IMG/VR virus record: IMGVR_UViG_2531839130_000013
Source: a virus
Lineage: Duplodnaviria; Heunggongvirae; Uroviricota; Caudoviricetes
DNA: 45,266 nt
Reading direction: 5' to 3' (one strand)
Shown: piece by piece, positions 6,354-30,962 of the stretch
Numbering within the stretch: position 1 is the stretch's first letter
How the letters are laid out: each line of letters begins with the position of its first letter
Position numbers and translations under genes: made by a program
Notes under the pieces: generated by a model
What the model saw: only the letters and a program-made list of their open reading frames with translations
The model's database searches: none
Told to the model about the DNA's origin: nothing

Positions 6354-6632
6354 TTAGGGAAACTGGCGTCTTGCGTGGATCACGTTTACTACTTCAACGC
6401 TTGATGTTGTTACGCGGTATAGAATTATATAGTTAGGGTGGGCTACAATCTCACGCAAGCCAGGTACTCTGTCGCTTGGTGGGTATAAATACGGATGTTC
6501 GGATAACGGCAGCACACAACCCCTTAATCGCTGCCATAAGCGTTCAGCCGCATCTATGTCGAAACGAGCAATATAACTAGTTATATCATCTAGGTCGGTA
6601 TCTGCGCTTTCAAGCCATAACACGGGTAACAT
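6354..6632 (-). CDS. parE: ParE/RelE-family type II toxin (about 92 aa)
   Basis: C-terminal region REIVAHPNYIILYRV...VEVVNVIHARRQFP is typical of the ParE/RelE fold; start placed at internal Met (MLPVLWLE...) abutting the antitoxin stop. Sizes (92 aa toxin, 63 aa antitoxin, upstream repressor) match the three-component PaaR-PaaA-ParE prophage modules of E. coli O157 as I recall them. Confidence 0.75.
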   Translation of the reverse strand: MLPVLWLESADTDLDDITSYIARFDIDAAERLWQRLRGCVLPLSEHPYLYPPSDRVPGLREIVAHPNYIILYRVTTSSVEVVNVIHARRQFP

Positions 6633-6633
6633 T

Positions 6634-6825
6634 TTACTGCTTGCTCCGTTCCTTGCGCATTTTAGCAAAGCGTTCTGCCATTCTGCGCTCAACTTCGTCA
6701 TGGGGAATTGCTGGGCGTGGATCTGCAAGGCTCGTTGCTACTTTTGCACGCAGCCATTCGTTGTAACTGTTTTCTTGTTCAATGGTTTCAAATTCAGAAA
6801 CCATTGGTGAAAGGGCTCTATTCAT
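6634..6825 (-). CDS. Antitoxin partner of the ParE-like toxin (63 aa, PaaA-like)
   Basis: Start MNRALSPMVSEF... preceded by GGAGGA SD; small acidic/basic protein immediately upstream of the toxin with near-adjacent stop/start. Confidence 0.6.
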   Translation of the reverse strand: MNRALSPMVSEFETIEQENSYNEWLRAKVATSLADPRPAIPHDEVERRMAERFAKMRKERSKQ

Positions 6826-6845
6826 GTTTCCTCCGGTTTTATAAC

Positions 6846-7217
6846 TCAGGCGCGGCGGCATTTTTGCGCCGCAATCCATCTCGCTATGAGATCTTCCATT
6901 GATTCTTTTTTCTGCTTTAACTCGCTGATTATCTGGCGTTGCTCATCCTCAGGGAAGGCTGAAAAAATCTGCAATAATTCCAGTTGATTAGACGTTAACC
7001 CTGCATGTGGTGGAGAAACCTCCGGTTGTTCTGCGTATTCCGCATCCAGATACCCTTCCGGCATCCCGTATGTTTGCTCTATTCTTCTGGCAGCCTTTTC
7101 TCCAAACGAGGCTCTCCCACTCATTAGTTGAGATAGGTAGCTCTTCTCTTTGGGTGGCAGAGTTTTATCTTTAAACCACTCCTTGAGACGTAAACGGCGA
7201 ATTTCTTTTTTTTGCAT
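6846..7217 (-). CDS. Phage repressor-like HTH regulator (cI/DicA/PaaR-like), probably leaderless
   Basis: HTH-like segment KSYLSQLMSGRASFGEKAARRIEQTYGMPEGYLD; C-terminal LELLQIFSAFPEDEQ resembles the DicA C-terminus. Start set at MQKK (7217) because the longer 158-aa reading runs through the divergent promoter and the cro-like start; a GATAAT -10 sits 6 nt upstream of this ATG. Confidence 0.7.
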   Translation of the reverse strand: MQKKEIRRLRLKEWFKDKTLPPKEKSYLSQLMSGRASFGEKAARRIEQTYGMPEGYLDAEYAEQPEVSPPHAGLTSNQLELLQIFSAFPEDEQRQIISELKQKKESMEDLIARWIAAQKCRRA

Positions 7218-7223
7218 GTGGTA

Positions 7224-7305
7224 ATTATCTTTAGTAATCACTAAACAAGCAAATACTTGACTTAATGGTTTATTAAACACTAAACTCTCAAAAAAAACAC
7301 TAAAC
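7224..7305. promoter_or_regulatory. Divergent promoter/operator region: leftward pRM-like promoter, rightward pR-like promoter, three CACTAAAC repeats
   Basis: Leftward -10 GATAAT (7224-7229 on +) and -35 TTGCTT (7247-7252) with 17-bp spacer; rightward -35 TTGACT 7257-7262, 18-bp spacer, -10 TAAACT 7281-7286; direct repeats CACTAAAC at 7239-7246, 7278-7285, 7298-7305. Confidence 0.45.
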
Positions 7306-7315
7306 CGAGGAAGGT

Positions 7316-7618
7316 ATGACATTAAAAGAGTTTATTAAATCATTGAGGGTTGGTGATGCTAAGAAATTCGCAGCCAGACTTGGTGTATCGCCATCTTACT
7401 TATCGCAAATGGCGTCTGGACGAGCAGCTATATCTCCAACACGCGCCCTTATGATCGAATCTGCGACGGAAGGCCAAGTAAGTAGGGCGGAGCTACGACC
7501 CCATGATTGGGAGCTTATTTGGCCTGAGTATGCGAGCGGCATTCGTTTGGGGCAAACACATGTAGTTCATGCTGAAGGTGATTGTAGTGCATGCTTATCT
7601 GATGGAGTTGATTCATGA
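7316..7618 (+). CDS. Cro-like HTH protein (YdaS-like)
   Basis: 100-aa ORF divergent from the repressor, GAGGAAGG SD; HTH-like FAARLGVSPSYLSQMASGRAAISPTRAL; position equivalent to cro. Confidence 0.65.
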   Translation: MTLKEFIKSLRVGDAKKFAARLGVSPSYLSQMASGRAAISPTRALMIESATEGQVSRAELRPHDWELIWPEYASGIRLGQTHVVHAEGDCSACLSDGVDS

Positions 7619-8040
7619 AAATCAAGCATGAACACATCCGCATGGCGATGAATGCCTGGGCGCATCCGGACGGTGAAAAAGTTCCGGCTGCGAAAATTAC
7701 CAAAGCGTATTTCGAGCTGGGAATGACGTTCCCGGAACTGTATAACGACAGCCATCCGGAAGCCCTGGCTCGCAATACTCAGAAAATTTTCCGCTGGGTG
7801 GAGAAAGACACCCCTGATGCGGTTAAAAAAATTCAGGCGTTGTTACCAGCTATCGAAAAAGCAATGCCGCCTCTGCTGGTGGCCCGAATGCGCAGCCACA
7901 GTTCAGCCTGGTTTCGGGAGCTGGTGGAGACGCGGGAACGGCTGGTGAGAGACGCTGATGATTTTGTCGCAGTGGCGATCGCTGGTTTCAACCAGATGAA
8001 TCGTGGTGGCCCTGCAGGAAATATTGTGGCTGTGCATTGA
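7615..8040 (+). CDS. YdaT-like protein (cII-position regulator / putative toxin family)
   Basis: 141-aa ORF starting MKIKHEHI..., overlapping the stop of the Cro-like gene; synteny and N-terminus resemble Rac prophage YdaT as I recall it. Confidence 0.5.
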   Translation: MKIKHEHIRMAMNAWAHPDGEKVPAAKITKAYFELGMTFPELYNDSHPEALARNTQKIFRWVEKDTPDAVKKIQALLPAIEKAMPPLLVARMRSHSSAWFRELVETRERLVRDADDFVAVAIAGFNQMNRGGPAGNIVAVH

Positions 8041-8105
8041 CTCGCAATATTCATACCGGATCACTTCCGGCAATTTGTGAGTAAAAAGATTCGGTATCAA
8101 AAGAG

Positions 8106-9152
8106 GTGAGTATGGCTAACGCCTGGCTCAGATTATGGCATGACATGCCAAACGATCCTAAGTGGCGAACAATTTCCAGGTTGTCAGGACAGCCAATCGC
8201 AACAGTGATGGCTGTGTATATCCACCTTCTGGTGAGTGCGTCACGAAATGTCACGACATGTCACGGTGTGTCACTACGTGGTCACATTGATGTCACGGCG
8301 GAAGATTTAGCAAGTGCGCTTGATGTGACGGAAGAAGTAATTGATTCAATTTTACAGGCAATGCAGGGGCGGGTACTTGATGGAGATTTGATCAGTGGAT
8401 GGGAAAAACGCCAGGTACTGAAAGAGGACAATGGCAACGTTTCACAAACCGCGAAATCCCCGGCAGAGCGCAAGAGAGCGCAGCGCGAGAGGGAAAAATT
8501 ACGAAAACAGAATGAGGGGGCGCGCGACGAGTCACGCATCTGTCACGACATGTCACGACGAGTCACGACAGATAAAGATACAGATAAAGAATTAAACCCC
8601 ACACATAACGCGCGCGTGCGAGAGAGTGCTCCTGCCAGTGAGGCAAATGGCGTGCCGTTGCAAACAGCGGAACCTGATTACCTGGAAGGCCTGAGCGAAC
8701 CCATCGGGAAATTTCCGATGACCGATGGCTGGCATCCGTCGCCGGATTTTCGACGACGGGCTGCGCTGTGGGGCGTGGCTCTTCCTGAGCCGGAATTTAC
8801 ACCAGCTGAACTTTCCGCCTTCCGGGACTACTGGGCAGCGGAGGGCAAAGTGTTCACGCAGGTTCAGTGGGAGCAGAAATTCGCCCGTCACGTAAATCAC
8901 GTCAGGGCGCAGGCTAAACCAGTCAGCAAGGGGGTAAACCATGCAGCAGCACCAGGTGGCACCGCATCACGGGCAGTTCAGGAAATTCGGGCAGCACGTG
9001 AGCAGTGGGAACGTGAAAACGGATTTATCAGCGACGGAAACGGCCTGGAAGCTGTGGGAACTCATGGGGGAGGTTTATTCGAACCGCTGGACCCAGAAGA
9101 ACGGGGCCGCACCTTCGAAGCTCTGGATTGCACAGATTGGCGCGATGACTGA
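8106..9152 (+). CDS. Replication initiation protein (O-like; YdaU/DUF1376-type N-terminus)
   Basis: 348-aa ORF with N-terminal WLRLWHDMPNDPKWRTI motif; two clusters of TGTCACG iterons lie inside the coding sequence, as the lambda ori lies inside O; immediately followed by a P-like gene. Confidence 0.65.
   Translation: MSMANAWLRLWHDMPNDPKWRTISRLSGQPIATVMAVYIHLLVSASRNVTTCHGVSLRGHIDVTAEDLASALDVTEEVIDSILQAMQGRVLDGDLISGWEKRQVLKEDNGNVSQTAKSPAERKRAQREREKLRKQNEGARDESRICHDMSRRVTTDKDTDKELNPTHNARVRESAPASEANGVPLQTAEPDYLEGLSEPIGKFPMTDGWHPSPDFRRRAALWGVALPEPEFTPAELSAFRDYWAAEGKVFTQVQWEQKFARHVNHVRAQAKPVSKGVNHAAAPGGTASRAVQEIRAAREQWERENGFISDGNGLEAVGTHGGGLFEPLDPEERGRTFEALDCTDWRDD
8239..8298. repeat. Iteron cluster 1: about six copies of (T)GTCACG at roughly 10-bp spacing
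   Basis: gcgTCACGaaaTGTCACGacaTGTCACGgtgTGTCACtacgtgGTCACattgaTGTCACG read directly from the sequence. Confidence 0.6.
8527..8564. repeat. Iteron cluster 2: four copies of GTCACG(A) followed by an A/T-rich tract (8565-8595)
   Basis: GAGTCACGcatcTGTCACGacaTGTCACGacgaGTCACGacag then gataaagatacagataaagaattaaa; iterons plus AT-rich region are ori-like. Confidence 0.55.
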
Positions 9153-9606
9153 GCAGCAAATCCGACAGGTCTGCCGCCAGTGCATGGACCGCTGCCGGGC
9201 GGGTGAAACATGGCCTCCGGACCTGGCTGAGTTTGTGGCACTGATTTCGGAGAGTGGGGCAAATCCATTTGGTCTGACGGTGGATGCTGTGATGGAGGAG
9301 TACCGTCGCTGGCGCAATGAGTCCTGGCGATACGACGGAAGCGATAAATACCCATGGACTCAGCCTGTGCTGTATCACATTTGCCTCGAGATGCGTTCAA
9401 AGGGGATTGAGCGCCAGATGACCGAAGGGGAATTAAAACGGCTTGCAGAACGGCAGCTGACGAAATGGGCAAAGCATGTTAGTAACGGCCTGAGCGTTCC
9501 GCCAGTCCGGCGACAACTGGCGGCACCCAAACGCCCGTCGGGACCAACGCCAATTGAGTTACTGAAACAGGAATATGAACGCCGGAAAGCGGCTGGGTTT
9601 GTTTGA
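8941..9606 (+). CDS. Replication protein P-like helicase loader
   Basis: C-terminal two-thirds align by eye with lambda P ([14 protein letters not shown] / [27 protein letters not shown]...[11 protein letters not shown] / YPWKSNAHYWLVTNLY...AELRRKAADEL). 5' end overlaps the initiator gene; true start may be the Met at 9064. Confidence 0.6.
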
Positions 9607-9640
9607 GTTGAGAAGTAATTTTTACCGGGAGGAAATTTTA

Positions 9641-10402
9641 ATGGAGACCGTTTTTGACGCACTGAAAGCGATGGGAAAAGCTACGTCGGTAGAACTGGCT
9701 GAGCGACTTGATATCAGTCGTGAAGAAGTGCTGAACGAACTATGGGAACTGAAAAAGGCTGGTTTCGTTGATAAAAGCGCGTACACCTGGCGTGTGGCTG
9801 ATAACAACGTTCAGCAGGAACAGCCAGCGCCAGAAGAACAGCCGGAAGAAACCTCCACGGCGACAGTAGCGAAAATCTCAGAGTGCGATTTAACCGCGAC
9901 GATTGAACAACGCGGACCACAAACGGCTGATGAGCTGGCTACATTGTTTGGTACCACATCACGCAAAGTGGCTTCAACGCTGGCAATGGCAATCAGCAAA
10001 GGCCGTCTGATTCGTGCTAATCAGGACGGTAAATTTCGTTACTGTATGCCGGGCGATAATTTACCAGCAGAGCCGAAAGCAGCATCGGTAGCGGAAACTG
10101 ATGGTAAAGCCTTTCCTCAGCCTGCATGCGTTGCGTTACCAGTACAGGAAGCTGCAACACAGGAAGATATTAAAACAGAGACTGTGGCGGACATTGTGCA
10201 GTCGCTGCCATCGTTTACTGAAACGCGAGCGGATGACCTGGTTTTACCATCGCTGCATATGGCAAACCGCGAACTGCGTCGGGCGAAAAATCATGTCCAG
10301 AAGTGGGAGCGAGTCTGCGCCGCGCTGCGGGAGCTGAACAAGCACCGGGATATTGTACGACAGATTACTGATTCTTCCCGCCATGTTGCATCGGAAAAGT
10401 GA
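9641..10402 (+). CDS. Hypothetical protein with N-terminal winged-helix-like segment (253 aa)
   Basis: Start [12 protein letters not shown]... with GGGAGG SD; N-terminal [28 protein letters not shown] looks like a wHTH; acidic/Q-rich linker. Confidence 0.5.
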
Positions 10403-10834
10403 TTGCCGGAGGCACCTGTGGCAAAAGTATTTACACCAGAAGAGCGGGAAAAAATTAAAGGGCAGGTTATTGAACTCGTGCGCCAGAGTGGGCGCGAGAC
10501 GTTACGGCAACTGGAAGCTAAAACAGGGGCGACAAGATACCTGATGAGCGTTCTCGCCAGAGAGCTGGTTGCCAGTGGTGATGTATACAACTCTGGCTAC
10601 GGGTTATTCCCGTCTGAACAGGCTCGTAAGGACTGGATAAAGGCCCGCAAAAAGATGTCGAAAGCAGCAGTGAAAAAAAAGAGCGACCCGGACTTGGTTT
10701 ATTCATTACCAGACGGAGAAATACGTCGTTACAACAGACGACAGAACATAATCTGTCGCGAGTGCCGGAAGAGTGAGGTTATGCAGCGAGTGCTGGCGTT
10801 TTATCAGGGGAATTTTGAGGAGGAGGTACTGTGA
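10403..10834 (+). CDS. Hypothetical protein (143 aa)
   Basis: ORF abutting the previous stop; contains a CxxC pair near the C-terminus (CRECRKSE); no family recognised. Confidence 0.4.
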   Translation: MPEAPVAKVFTPEEREKIKGQVIELVRQSGRETLRQLEAKTGATRYLMSVLARELVASGDVYNSGYGLFPSEQARKDWIKARKKMSKAAVKKKSDPDLVYSLPDGEIRRYNRRQNIICRECRKSEVMQRVLAFYQGNFEEEVL

Positions 10835-11395: not shown

Positions 11396-12082
11396 ATGAC
11401 CACAATAAATACGTTTATGACAGTTGCTGATTTCAAACGGCCTAAATTGGAGCTCCCAAACGGGGCAAACAAACTACTACTGCACTCTTGCTGTGCTCCA
11501 TGTTCCGGTGAAGTGATGGAGGCGCTTCAGGCCTCGGGAATCGACTACACCATCTTTTTCTACAACCCGAACATTCATCCTCAGAAAGAGTATTTAATTC
11601 GTAAGGATGAGAATATTCGCTTTGCTGAACAACACGGCGTGCAGTTTATCGATGCTGATTACGACACAGACAACTGGTTTGAACGTGCCAAAGGAATGGA
11701 ATGGGAGCCCGAGAGGGGGATCCGTTGTACCATGTGTTTTGACATGCGTTTTGAGCGGACAGCGTTGTACGCTGCTGAAAATGGTTTCAGTGTGATCAGC
11801 AGTTCGCTGGGCATTTCACGCTGGAAAAATATGCAGCAGGTTAACGACTGTGGGCGGCGAGCCGTCGCGCATTATCCGGGAATGGTGTACTGGGATTATA
11901 ACTGGCGCAAGCAGGGCGGCTCGTCCCGTATGATTGAAATCAGCAAGCGCGAAAAATTCTATCAGCAGGAATATTGTGGCTGTGTGTATTCTCTGCGCGA
12001 TACCAATCTACACCGCAAATCTCAGGGACGCCCTCTTATCAAAATTGGTCAACTCCACTACGGTAAAGAAGAGAAGGAGTGA
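11396..12082 (+). CDS. queH: QueH-like protein (DUF208, epoxyqueuosine reductase family)
   Basis: N-terminal [11 protein letters not shown] motif plus downstream conserved Cys (CTMCFD, YCGCV) match the signature of QueH/DUF208 as I recall it; stand-alone gene between replication genes and the hok locus. Confidence 0.6.
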
Positions 12083-12262: not shown

Positions 12263-12322
12263 ATGCGACACATAGAGATTAGCCTCTTACGGACCGAAAG
12301 GTCAAGGAGAAGCGGGCTATGA
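12263..12322 (+). CDS. Short leader ORF (19 codons) whose stop overlaps the hok ATG (mok-like coupling ORF)
   Basis: atgcgacacatagag... ends in TGA overlapping the hok ATG (cTATGAag); the leader region is rich in inverted repeats typical of hok mRNAs. Confidence 0.3.
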   Translation: MRHIEISLLRTERSRRSGL

Positions 12323-12474
12323 AGCAGCGAAAGGCGATGTTAATCGCCCTGATCGTCATCTGTTTAACCGTCATAGTGACGGCACTGGTAACGAGGAAAG
12401 ACCTCTGCGAGGTACGAATCCGAACCGGCCAGACGGAGGTCGCTGTCTTCACAGCTTACGAACCTGAGGAGTAA
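12319..12474 (+). CDS. hok: Hok/Gef-family type I toxin (51 aa), HokD/RelF-like
   Basis: Hand-translated: MKQRKAMLIALIVICLTVIVTALVTRKDLCEVRIRTGQTEVAVFTAYEPEE, essentially the Hok/RelF sequence; AAGGAGAAG SD upstream; below the size threshold of the ORF track. Confidence 0.85.
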   Translation: MKQRKAMLIALIVICLTVIVTALVTRKDLCEVRIRTGQTEVAVFTAYEPEE

Positions 12475-12915: not shown

Positions 12916-13965
12916 GTGCGGGTATTACTTCGACCTGTTCTGGTGCCGGAACTTGGGGTGGTTATCGTTAAGCCAGGTCGTGAATCCATGCAGGTATTCC
13001 ATAACGGCAGAGTGCTGGTTGAACCGGAGCCAAAAAGCATGCGCGGTCTGCCGTCCGGGGTCGTTCCTGCCGTTCGCCAGCCGCTGGCGGAAGACAAATC
13101 TCTGCTGCCATTTTTCAGCGATGAGCGGGTGATTCGTGCTGCCGGCGGCGCTGGTGCACTGTCTGACTGGCTCCTGCGTCATGTTAAATCCTGCCAGTGG
13201 CCTCATGGTGACTACCATCACAGTGAAACCGTCATACATCGTTACGGTACCGGCGCGATGGTGCTGTGCTGGCACTGCGACAACCAGCTGCGTGACCAGA
13301 CATCCGAATCACTCGGGCAACTTGCTCATCAAAACCTGTCAGCATGGATGATTGACGTCATACGCCATGCAGTGAATGGCACGCAGGAGCGGGAATTATC
13401 GCTGGCTGAATTATCCTGGTGGGCGGTCCGCAATCAGGTGGCGGACGCGCTTCCGGAGGCAGTATTACGTCGTTCTCTGGGGTTACGTGCGGAAAAAATC
13501 CGCTCTGTGTACCGTGAAAGCGACATCATACCGGGAGAGCAGACAGCCACCAGCATACTGAAGCAGCGCACAAAAAATATTGTGCTACCGCCTCACGCCC
13601 ACCAGCAACAGAACCCACCACAGGAAAAGACGGTGGTCAGCATTGCCGTTGATCCGGAGTCTCCTGAATCTTTCATGAAGCGACCTAAACGTCGCCGCTG
13701 GGTTAACGAAAAGTACACGCGCTGGGTTAAGACACAGCCGTGTGCATGTTGTGGTAAGCCAGCCGACGATCCCCATCACCTGATTGGTCACGGTCAGGGA
13801 GGGATGGGGACAAAAGCCCACGATATTTTCACGCTACCGCTGTGCCGGGAGCATCACAATGAACTTCATGCTGATCCGCTGGCATTTGAAGAAAAGCATG
13901 GTTCCCAGATTGATTTAATTTTTCGTTTTCTTGATCACGCCTTTGCAACCGGCGTGCTCGGGTAA
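12916..13965 (+). CDS. DUF968-family protein with C-terminal HNH-like Cys/His motif (YdfU-like)
   Basis: GTG start with GGAGG SD; C-terminus CACCGKPADDPHHLIGHGQGGMGTKAHDIFTLPLCREHHNELH is HNH-like; 349 aa like Qin YdfU. Confidence 0.55.
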   Translation: MRVLLRPVLVPELGVVIVKPGRESMQVFHNGRVLVEPEPKSMRGLPSGVVPAVRQPLAEDKSLLPFFSDERVIRAAGGAGALSDWLLRHVKSCQWPHGDYHHSETVIHRYGTGAMVLCWHCDNQLRDQTSESLGQLAHQNLSAWMIDVIRHAVNGTQERELSLAELSWWAVRNQVADALPEAVLRRSLGLRAEKIRSVYRESDIIPGEQTATSILKQRTKNIVLPPHAHQQQNPPQEKTVVSIAVDPESPESFMKRPKRRRWVNEKYTRWVKTQPCACCGKPADDPHHLIGHGQGGMGTKAHDIFTLPLCREHHNELHADPLAFEEKHGSQIDLIFRFLDHAFATGVLG

Positions 13966-30188: not shown

Positions 30189-30962
30189 GTGATGTCCACA
30201 CCGAATCCACTGGAGAAAACGAAAGGCGCAGGGACAACATTCTGGATGTATACCGGGATGGGAGATCCGTTTGCGTCTGCATTGTCAGACACGGACTGGC
30301 TGCGACTGGCAATGGTGAAGGATTTGCAGCCGGGCGAAATGACGGCTGATGCGGAAGACGACACGTATCTTGATGATGAGAATGCGGACTGGAAGAGCAC
30401 ATCTCAGGGCCAGAAAACCGCTGGCGATACGTCTGCCACACTGGCATGGCGTCCGGGCGACAGCGGACAGAAAAAACTGGTTGAGTTGTTTTATTCCGGC
30501 GAGGTTTGTGCGTTTCGCATTCTGTACCCCAACGGCACAGTTGATGTTTTTCGTGGCTGGTTGAGTTCGCTGGGCAAAGCGGTGACGTCAACGGAAGTGA
30601 TGACCCGGACCATCAAAATCACCGGGATTGGGCGTCCGTACCTGGCGGAAGAGTGTCAGGAGGTGGTCAGCGTCACCGGTGTGACGGTGACACCGATGGC
30701 GGTGACACTGCATCCTGGTGAAACGTCCAAACTGACGTTTGTGCTTGTACCGGAAAACGCCTCGGATAAAACGCTCACGGTGTTTTCCACGGATCCGCAG
30801 ACAGCAACGGTAAGCCTGAGCGGCCTTGTGGCTACGGTATCTGCCCGCCAGGAAGGGACGGTCAGTATTGTGGGTATGAGCGGTGATGGCCGTACGGGGC
30901 AGGTGGTCAAGGTGACCGTGGCCCCTGCTGAGGAGAAGAGTACCGGACGTACCCGGGGATAA
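30189..30962 (+). CDS. V: Major tail protein V-like with C-terminal Ig-like domain
   Basis: KGAGTT.W.Y.G.GDP...LSD.DW.RLA.VKDL.PGE.TA...DD.YLDDE.ADW matches lambda gpV. Confidence 0.9.
   Translation: MMSTPNPLEKTKGAGTTFWMYTGMGDPFASALSDTDWLRLAMVKDLQPGEMTADAEDDTYLDDENADWKSTSQGQKTAGDTSATLAWRPGDSGQKKLVELFYSGEVCAFRILYPNGTVDVFRGWLSSLGKAVTSTEVMTRTIKITGIGRPYLAEECQEVVSVTGVTVTPMAVTLHPGETSKLTFVLVPENASDKTLTVFSTDPQTATVSLSGLVATVSARQEGTVSIVGMSGDGRTGQVVKVTVAPAEEKSTGRTRG

Follow-up and report, generated by a model that had tools for sequence, protein, structure and literature searches.

Why should the coding sequence of a phage replication initiator carry two separate clusters of the same short direct repeat? 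The question is raised by a stretch of 45,266 nucleotides (nt) from a virus of the class Caudoviricetes (IMG/VR record IMGVR_UViG_2531839130_000013), which at its full length is called the window below. A gene on its + strand at positions 8112 to 9152 (ATG 8112, TGA 9152, taken from the open reading frame list) encodes a replication initiator of 346 amino acids, and an earlier reading of the letters, here the original prediction, had placed inside this gene about six and four GTCACG-type repeats at roughly 10-base-pair (bp) phasing. We analyzed these repeats, the A-rich tract that follows them, and their counterparts in related genomes, and we conclude that the element is probably the origin of lytic replication of the prophage, located within the gene that encodes its initiator.

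Both clusters were found, and the predicted coordinates were right to within a few bases. Array 1 (8240 to 8297, + strand) consists of six direct GTCAC(G/T/A) units at a phase of 10 to 11 nt, starting at 8240, 8250, 8260, 8270 (GTCACT), 8281 (GTCACA), and 8292 (spacing of 10, 10, 10, 11, and 11). Array 2 (8531 to 8567, + strand), which we propose to hold the initiator sites of the origin core, consists of four direct GTCACG units at the same phase, starting at 8531, 8542, 8552, and 8562 (spacing of 11, 10, and 10). The distance from first unit to first unit is 291 nt, as against the predicted value of about 290 bp, and the gap between the arrays is about 230 bp. The repeat-finder check that had been suggested bore this out: Tandem Repeats Finder reported period-10 arrays at 8240 to 8265 and 8541 to 8570, together with a period-6 AGATAA array at 8570 to 8590. 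Eight of the 32 exact GTCACG words in the window sit in the two arrays, all eight on the + strand, and no other stretch of the window holds at least four GTCAC per 60 nt (maximum of 3 in shuffled windows). The predicted A/T-rich stretch after the second cluster is the (GATAAA/GATACA)n tract ACAGATAAAGATACAGATAAAGAATTAAAC at 8568 to 8597 (+ strand; 77% A+T, 60% A), into which the last unit of array 2 runs directly and which we propose as a DNA-unwinding element.

Several other candidate signals were considered. A second origin elsewhere in the window, comparable to oriR of phage SPP1, was rejected: the only other GTCAC grouping, at about 30680 to 30706 (− strand), comprises three unphased copies within 60 nt (7 and 19 nt apart), apparently within coding sequence, and was judged to be due to chance. 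A DnaA box look-alike, TATATCCACC, at 8216 to 8225 was also rejected, as it is not retained in a Pseudomonas relative. Searches for internal promoters and terminators at the clusters gave consensus matches at background level only, none of them at the arrays. No operator-like GTCAC was found in the upstream promoter region (6500 to 8239), and no Rfam match was found in 7000 to 10000 at an E value of ≤1.

We then asked whether the repeats could follow from the protein sequence. With the protein held fixed, synonymous codons were redrawn 10,000 times over the first 520 nt of the gene. The number of GTCAC words expected under this resampling was 1.34 ± 1.10 (maximum of 7), compared with 10 observed, and the number of phased GTCAC pairs was 0.10, compared with 8 observed; none of the 10,000 redraws reached either observed value. 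The period of 10 to 11 nt crosses all three reading frames, such that one word is read as Val-Thr, x-His-x, and Ser-Arg in turn, and selection for a repeated peptide therefore does not explain the repeats. We also built a codon alignment of 25 GTCACG-using genes (from Escherichia, Aeromonas, Pseudomonas, Bordetella, Chromobacterium, Stenotrophomonas, and others; median amino acid identity of 61%) and measured the majority-base fraction at third-codon positions. This fraction was 0.90 in the iteron cores and 0.85 in the A-rich tract, compared with 0.55 elsewhere (Mann-Whitney test, P value = 1.6 × 10−7 and P value = 2 × 10−4, respectively), and the most conserved nucleotides of the gene in this alignment were the cores of array 1. 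These results show that the repeats and the A-rich tract are under selection at the DNA level.

Protein-guided retrieval of relatives of the initiator gene yielded two sets, 80 closely related viral contigs and a diverse set of 80 genomic loci. The array survey covered 80 diverse loci (76 genomic loci and four phage genomes) from gamma-, beta-, and alphaproteobacteria, Acidobacteria, and phages, with an array defined as a phased run of at least three copies. Both arrays were present in 49 of the 80 loci, at about nt 129 to 165 and nt 355 to 430 of the gene; the downstream array alone was present in 21, the upstream array alone in none, and 10 had neither by this simple detector. Array 2 was thus present in 70 of the 80 loci, and the arrangement of two clusters within one coding sequence, as originally predicted for the window, is a conserved one. 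Among the close viral relatives, copy numbers were 6+5 (54 contigs), 6+4 (15 contigs, as in the window), 4+5, 6+6, and 5+3, with array 1 ranging from 4 to 6 copies. These results indicate that the two-array layout is the norm of this initiator family.

Lineages use different core words (GTCACG, CGAACG(C), GCAACG, or GTAACG), all of which end in ACG, and this allowed us to look at how the two arrays vary with respect to each other. With the core word derived independently for each array in 35 loci, the hexamer was identical in both arrays in 33 of them (permutation mean of 13 and maximum of 22; these counts ignore shared ancestry), and the two exceptions showed a one-base difference. Each of the four hexamer classes was internally consistent, and the peptides encoded by both arrays changed along with the hexamer class; in the class-sorted alignment, lineage and hexamer class are confounded. 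The two arrays, then, change specificity together across lineages. In addition to the direct units, the window has a single inverted copy (GTGACG on the + strand, hence a site on the − strand) at 8325 to 8330, 33 nt past the last unit of array 1. A GTGAC copy is found at the equivalent position (nt 193 or 214 of the gene) in most GTCACG-class loci, and its conservation is not separable from selection on the conserved ALDVT peptide that is encoded there.

The A-rich tract was likewise not peculiar to the window. In each of the 24 GTCACG-class loci that we examined, an equivalent tract, (A/T)AGATAAAGATA(A/C)AGA..., lay directly 3′ of the final iteron. A nearest-neighbor calculation gave the tract the lowest stability of any 25-mer in the gene and in the interval from 7300 to 10400; among the 45,242 positions of the window, it came 25th. 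An automated test of 40 relatives placed the least stable 25-mer of the gene at a start of −5 to +30 nt from the last array 2 unit in 34; in the other six, where the array end was picked by a crude chain detector, the least stable 25-mer was also GATAAA/GATACA type or purine rich. In 27 of the 40, including hosts with 60 to 70% G+C, the least stable 25-mer of the gene was also that of the entire 3.4-kb locus. The tract is thus the stability minimum of the gene, and by its composition and position it looks like an unwinding element.

The tract also marks a boundary of a different kind. In megablast searches, window positions 8106 to 8590 were related to phages Evi, Tritos, and others (85% identity), and positions 8570 to 9606 were related to the ydaU/ydaV genes of Rac-SA53 and to PPompW prophages (93 to 96%), with the switch of partner falling within the A-rich tract, at window positions 8570 to 8591. 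This tract is the joint at which the N-terminal and C-terminal modules have recombined, and the module boundary lies there. The unit made up of the N-terminal domain (N-domain), the arrays, and the tract is fused or adjacent to at least four different helicase-recruitment partners: in the window gene, a DnaT-like domain plus a P-like loader; in Pseudomonas phage phita81A, a Toprim-DnaB primase-helicase; in Ralstonia phage Hennie, DnaB; in protein P0114, Phg_2220_C; and in phage Evi, an uncharacterized C-terminal half. Since P0114 carries Phg_2220_C on an N-domain that is 62% identical, the C-terminal domain is exchangeable. The converse exchange is seen in YdaU of Rac-SA53, which has an unrelated DUF1376 N-domain without GTCACG, yet the same tract (at about 2500 to 2530 of its locus, L002) and the same DnaT-like C-terminal half. 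Just upstream of this shared tract, ydaU holds an inverted repeat, GTGTTCAAACA...TGTTTGAACA (L002, at about 2422 to 2475), which may be the equivalent initiator site of the DUF1376 module and possibly relates to the Rac origin.

The protein is built of two folded parts joined by a linker. Its gene is preceded directly by a ribosome-binding site (AAGAGGTGA, 5′ of ATG 8112), and relatives begin with MANxWLRLWH. In an AlphaFold model built from 83 sequences, the N-domain (residues 1 to 100) is confident and contains a winged helix (helices 63 to 70 and 74 to 84 plus the wing; predicted local distance difference test score of >90 over residues 63 to 100) and, less confidently, a beta-hairpin at residues 47 to 58. 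A charged basic helix (117 to 134) and a disordered interdomain linker (138 to 193) follow, and the DnaT fold comes after the linker. Array 1 encodes amino acids 43 to 62 (SRNVTTCHGVSLRGHIDVT), a beta-hairpin within the folded N-domain; array 2 encodes amino acids 140 to 152, at the start of the disordered linker, and the A-rich tract also encodes the start of the linker. The original prediction had taken the segment between the clusters for a highly charged interdomain linker, which was mostly wrong, as it is there that the winged-helix core (63 to 100) is encoded; only the charged helix at 117 to 134 answers to the description. The placement was mistaken as well, as the linker begins at cluster 2 and cluster 1 encodes the N-domain hairpin.

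Residues 201 to 268 form a DnaT-like single-stranded DNA-binding domain (Pfam DnaT PF17948, E value = 4.3 × 10−18), and Foldseek matched the C-terminal domain to the DnaT structures 6aeq and 4ou6 (58% identity, template modeling score of 0.84 to 0.92). The match to NF002770 covers positions 81 to 167 only and falls under its cutoff; the initiator shares with DnaT only the C-terminal single-stranded DNA-binding three-helix domain and is not itself DnaT. The N-terminal 160 residues match PHROG families of the replication initiation protein type and, weakly, of the replisome organizer type (phrog_4880, replisome organizer, 5.9 × 10−6; phrog_1163, 1.6 × 10−4; and phrog_5968). The TIGR01714 model (phage replisome organizer N-terminal region) was matched over its positions 1 to 118 of 119 with an E value of 2.8 × 10−4 and 21 bits, below the cutoff of 49.8, and PF09681 matched the Evi homologue with an E value of 0.12. 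Phage replisome organizer is also the NCBI name for close relatives of the initiator. The N-domain thus appears to be distantly related to the N-terminal domain of phage replisome organizers, below the family cutoffs. No match to the lambda O family was obtained in Pfam, NCBIfam, or PHROGs. Next to the initiator, and overlapping its stop codon (ATGACTGA), starts a lambda P-like helicase loader gene (9145 to 9606, + strand; Phage_lambda_P PF06992, E value = 7.3 × 10−16; phrog_109, P-like helicase loader).

Taken together with the precedents of SPP1 and lambda, this anatomy suggests how the origin may work. The N-terminal winged-helix domain would bind GTCACG units as monomers, one per helical turn and on one face of the DNA. 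Array 2 (8531 to 8567) and the adjoining A-rich tract (8568 to 8597) would form the origin core, in which a filled array 2 would melt the tract. The DnaT-like C-terminal domains, each at the end of a linker of about 55 residues, would then capture single strands, and the lambda P-like protein encoded next would deliver the host DnaB. Initiator binding, melting, the role of the DnaT-like domain, and any looping are what we infer from the anatomy and these precedents. Array 1 (8240 to 8297), about 230 bp upstream in the part of the gene that encodes the DNA-binding domain, has, to judge from the comparative data, probably been selected as a site for the same recognition domain and would serve as an accessory second set of sites; we regard it as accessory because it is absent from 21 loci and is never present alone.

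What array 1 adds to such an origin can be proposed tentatively. It may act cooperatively, with bound initiator bridging or looping the two arrays into a complex that increases both the occupancy of the core and the strain on it, and we lean toward this role with slightly less than even confidence. The main rival reading, which we consider unlikely though worth taking seriously, keeps array 2 and the tract as the origin and gives array 1 a negative role, either in initiator titration or handcuffing or as a transcription roadblock that throttles the initiator and the loader. This negative role would suit an array that 21 of the 80 loci dispense with and that is never found alone. Array 1 lies 130 nt into the first replication gene of the operon, where bound protein would face every transcribing polymerase, and with no GTCAC in 6500 to 8239, any autoregulation would have to act at array 1. 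The inverted copy, which is conserved and lies 33 nt downstream, is reminiscent of the inverted repeats that form operators in iteron plasmids, an origin with separate control iterons is well known from plasmids P1 (incA) and F (incC), and a helical-phase constraint between the arrays is absent. On the other hand, it is not obvious why a lytic phage origin should need copy number restraint, and array 1 shares the orientation, phase, and core of the origin array. Copy number compensation and helical phasing gave no discrimination between the cooperative and the inhibitory roles. An improbable further idea is that array 1 biases the initiator toward acting in cis, on the genome from which it was expressed, since the array lies in the codons of a hairpin belonging to the domain that recognizes it and is close behind the polymerase and the ribosome while that domain folds. 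If true, cis action would provide a private origin for each of several coresident prophages, and the four coevolving hexamer classes would represent repeated specificity switches that rewrite protein and sites in the same nucleotides.

Two further explanations would deny the arrays, or array 1, a role as initiator sites. That the repeats serve the protein or the mRNA, as peptide motifs or as mRNA structure or signals, has in its favor that the iteron-encoded peptides SRNVT, RGH, and CHD are conserved and that the hairpin is part of the fold. We nevertheless hold it to be very improbable: the same word encodes VT, CH, and SR as the period passes through the three frames, synonymous positions are conserved far above background, and no Rfam family was matched. 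Some relatives (e.g., L154 and L165) have a hairpin of the same length without repeats, which argues that the repeats were written into a preexisting structural element, and a disordered region 230 nt away contains the same word again, with both arrays switching word together. Moreover, characterized relatives use such repeats as initiator-binding DNA (PMC6316719, PMC8965321). That array 1 is a functionless by-product, such as a slipped or gene-converted copy of array 2, or that the clusters are due to chance, would fit the drift of copy number among close relatives (6+5, 6+4, 4+5, 6+6, and 5+3). This last reading appears contradicted by the comparative data and is close to refuted, given that none of the 10,000 codon resamplings reached the observed counts, that array 1 keeps its position across lineages differing by 40 to 60% in protein sequence, that it tracks four specificity changes, and that no nucleotides of the gene are more conserved than its cores.

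Against the proposal of an embedded origin with an accessory array 1 stand several results of our own. The homology of the N-domain to characterized replisome organizers is weak (TIGR01714 lies below its cutoff), an hhalign comparison of the N-domain with r1t ORF11 gave a probability of 4.5%, and neither BLASTP nor hhalign gave a match to SPP1 G38P. The covariation count of 33 of 35 takes no account of shared ancestry. The 21 of 80 loci that lack array 1 mean that this type of origin can dispense with it, and those loci have no more array 2 units than the others (mean of 3.9 versus 3.8, P value = 0.76). The distance between the arrays, about 190 to 250 nt, has no common helical phase across classes; it is mostly 227 to 229 nt in the GTCACG class and about 190 to 230 nt in the CGAACG class, values that are confounded with protein length.

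The genes around the initiator complete the picture of the locus. Upstream lie a repressor-like gene on the opposite strand (6846 to 7322), a Cro/YdaS-like helix-turn-helix gene (7316 to 7618), and a YdaT-like gene (7615 to 8040). A ParE toxin gene (6354 to 6728, − strand) and a PaaA2-like antitoxin gene (6634 to 6879, − strand) adjoin the prophage immunity region. The P-like gene is followed on the + strand by a gene for a helix-turn-helix plus DUF1627 protein (9641 to 10402) and then by one for a DUF977 (LygF-like) protein (10403 to 10834); in phage Evi, a DUF977 gene lies directly 3′ of the initiator, and no loader gene is annotated. Farther along the + strand, an epoxyqueuosine reductase QueH gene (11396 to 12082; Pfam E value = 1.6 × 10−65) lies amid the prophage early genes, and a small toxin gene of the Hok/Gef family (12319 to 12474) and a DUF968/HNH-like gene (12916 to 13965) are found downstream of the replication module.

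The module is very common, and relatives occur across the Proteobacteria and in isolated phages. At least 80% of the length of the window allele is present in 658 of 5,426 complete Escherichia coli genomes, and some portion of it is present in 2,609. In public records, the initiator is labeled only as a DnaT-like domain protein, as hypothetical, or as a pyocin large subunit, and no origin is marked. The pyocin label, found in RefSeq entries of E. coli (e.g., NZ_CP043825.1, 1263839 to 1264885), looks like a misannotation, and many database proteins of the initiator family are marked as partial, which suggests assembly breaks in a multicopy prophage region. An origin embedded in the gene of an initiator or replisome organizer is a kind of element already well known. 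In the literature searched, which took in few subscription-journal papers, we found no description of the origin of this proteobacterial family, of the GTCACG-type words, of the (GATAAA)n tract, or of array 1, although an older one is possible; the paper on the Shiga toxin (Stx) phage Eru replication units does not mention origins. An origin defined by its core word, phase, unwinding tract, and module joint would make it possible to predict origin specificity and cross talk between coresident prophages, and it would provide a portable origin-plus-initiator cassette for vector building. The four matched protein/DNA specificity classes offer a natural series for the coevolution of initiator and site within the initiator's own codons, and array 1 provides a testable instance in which protein and DNA codes overlap within a folded domain.

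How does this arrangement compare with known origins? Two separate clusters of one short repeat, read by a single initiator, are found in plasmid P1 (incC/incA), in plasmid F (ori2 with incB/incC), and in phage P4 (ori/crr). One cluster in each adjoins the opening site; the accessory one is inhibitory in P1 and F and required in cis in P4. The window shares with them the two separate clusters of a short repeat. It differs in that their sets lie outside or flanking the initiator gene, hundreds to thousands of base pairs apart, whereas both sets of the window are translated, and RepA, RepE, and the P4 alpha protein are unrelated to the window initiator.

The architecture had originally been likened to that of ori-lambda within gene O. 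In phage lambda, iteron binding is a function of the N-terminal half of the O protein, and interaction with the P loader is one of the C-terminal half; the iterons, four in lambda and six in Stx phages, form one contiguous block and are described as 19 bp long and internally symmetric. The likeness stands as far as iterons and an A/T-rich tract in the middle of the initiator gene are concerned, with a P-type loader gene downstream. It does not extend to the initiator, which is not an O homologue and has an N-domain of another family, or to the repeat units, which are 6-bp direct cores at 10 to 11 bp rather than 19-bp iterons and are arranged in two blocks 230 bp apart, one of them within the codons of the DNA-binding domain. 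In lambda, the iterons are followed by the AT-rich tract in mid-gene O, and in Stx phage origins, which have six iterons, the two extra ones are weakly bound yet required for replication (PMC7466680). The extra Stx iterons are a precedent for accessory iterons.

The closest parallels are found among the replisome organizers of phages of Gram-positive hosts, as represented by SPP1 and the lactococcal phages r1t, TP901-1, and Tuc2009. G38P of SPP1 binds direct repeats (AB boxes) of oriL within gene 38, beside an AT-rich unwinding element, and a 356-bp oriL fragment has been cloned as the template for reconstituted in vitro replication (PMC6316719, PMC5737612). ORF13 of TP901-1 and Rep2009 of Tuc2009 bind direct repeats in their own genes that serve as ori, and ORF11 of r1t is a homologue (PMC8965321). 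Reading these sequences, we found AAACGACAC/AAAAGACAC repeats at nt 355 to 415 of SPP1 gene 38, followed by an A-rich tract; four copies of GGAACC at an 11-nt phase at nt 316 to 349 of r1t ORF11, followed by AGATAAGAATAGATTAGATAAGAATAG (AGATAAGAATAGATTAGATAAG); and two copies of TTTTCCAGATGTGG at about nt 310 to 345 of TP901-1 ORF13, followed by an A-rich tract. In none of these three genes was an array seen inside the part that encodes the N-domain. A distant link to r1t ORF11 is given by phrog_1163, which is its best family (4.9 × 10−68) and is also matched by the window N-domain, and G38P and ORF11 carry Phg_2220_C, the domain also present on the relative P0114.

The differences concern the second array and the C-terminal domain. 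The three genes have a single array at the domain boundary, and array 1 is what sets the window gene apart from them. SPP1 has its second G38P-binding site, oriR, about 13 kbp from oriL (PMC6316719), distant in the genome, whereas the second array of the window gene lies 230 bp away in the same gene. The Phg_2220_C or DnaD-like C-terminal domain of the G38P and ORF11 type is not found in the window protein, which combines a DnaT-like domain with a lambda P-like loader. What is shared is an origin within the initiator gene at the boundary of the N-domain, made up of direct repeats at about one helical turn and then an A-rich tract. Since SPP1, r1t, and TP901-1 each have one array at that boundary, array 2 of the window and its tract represent the same device.

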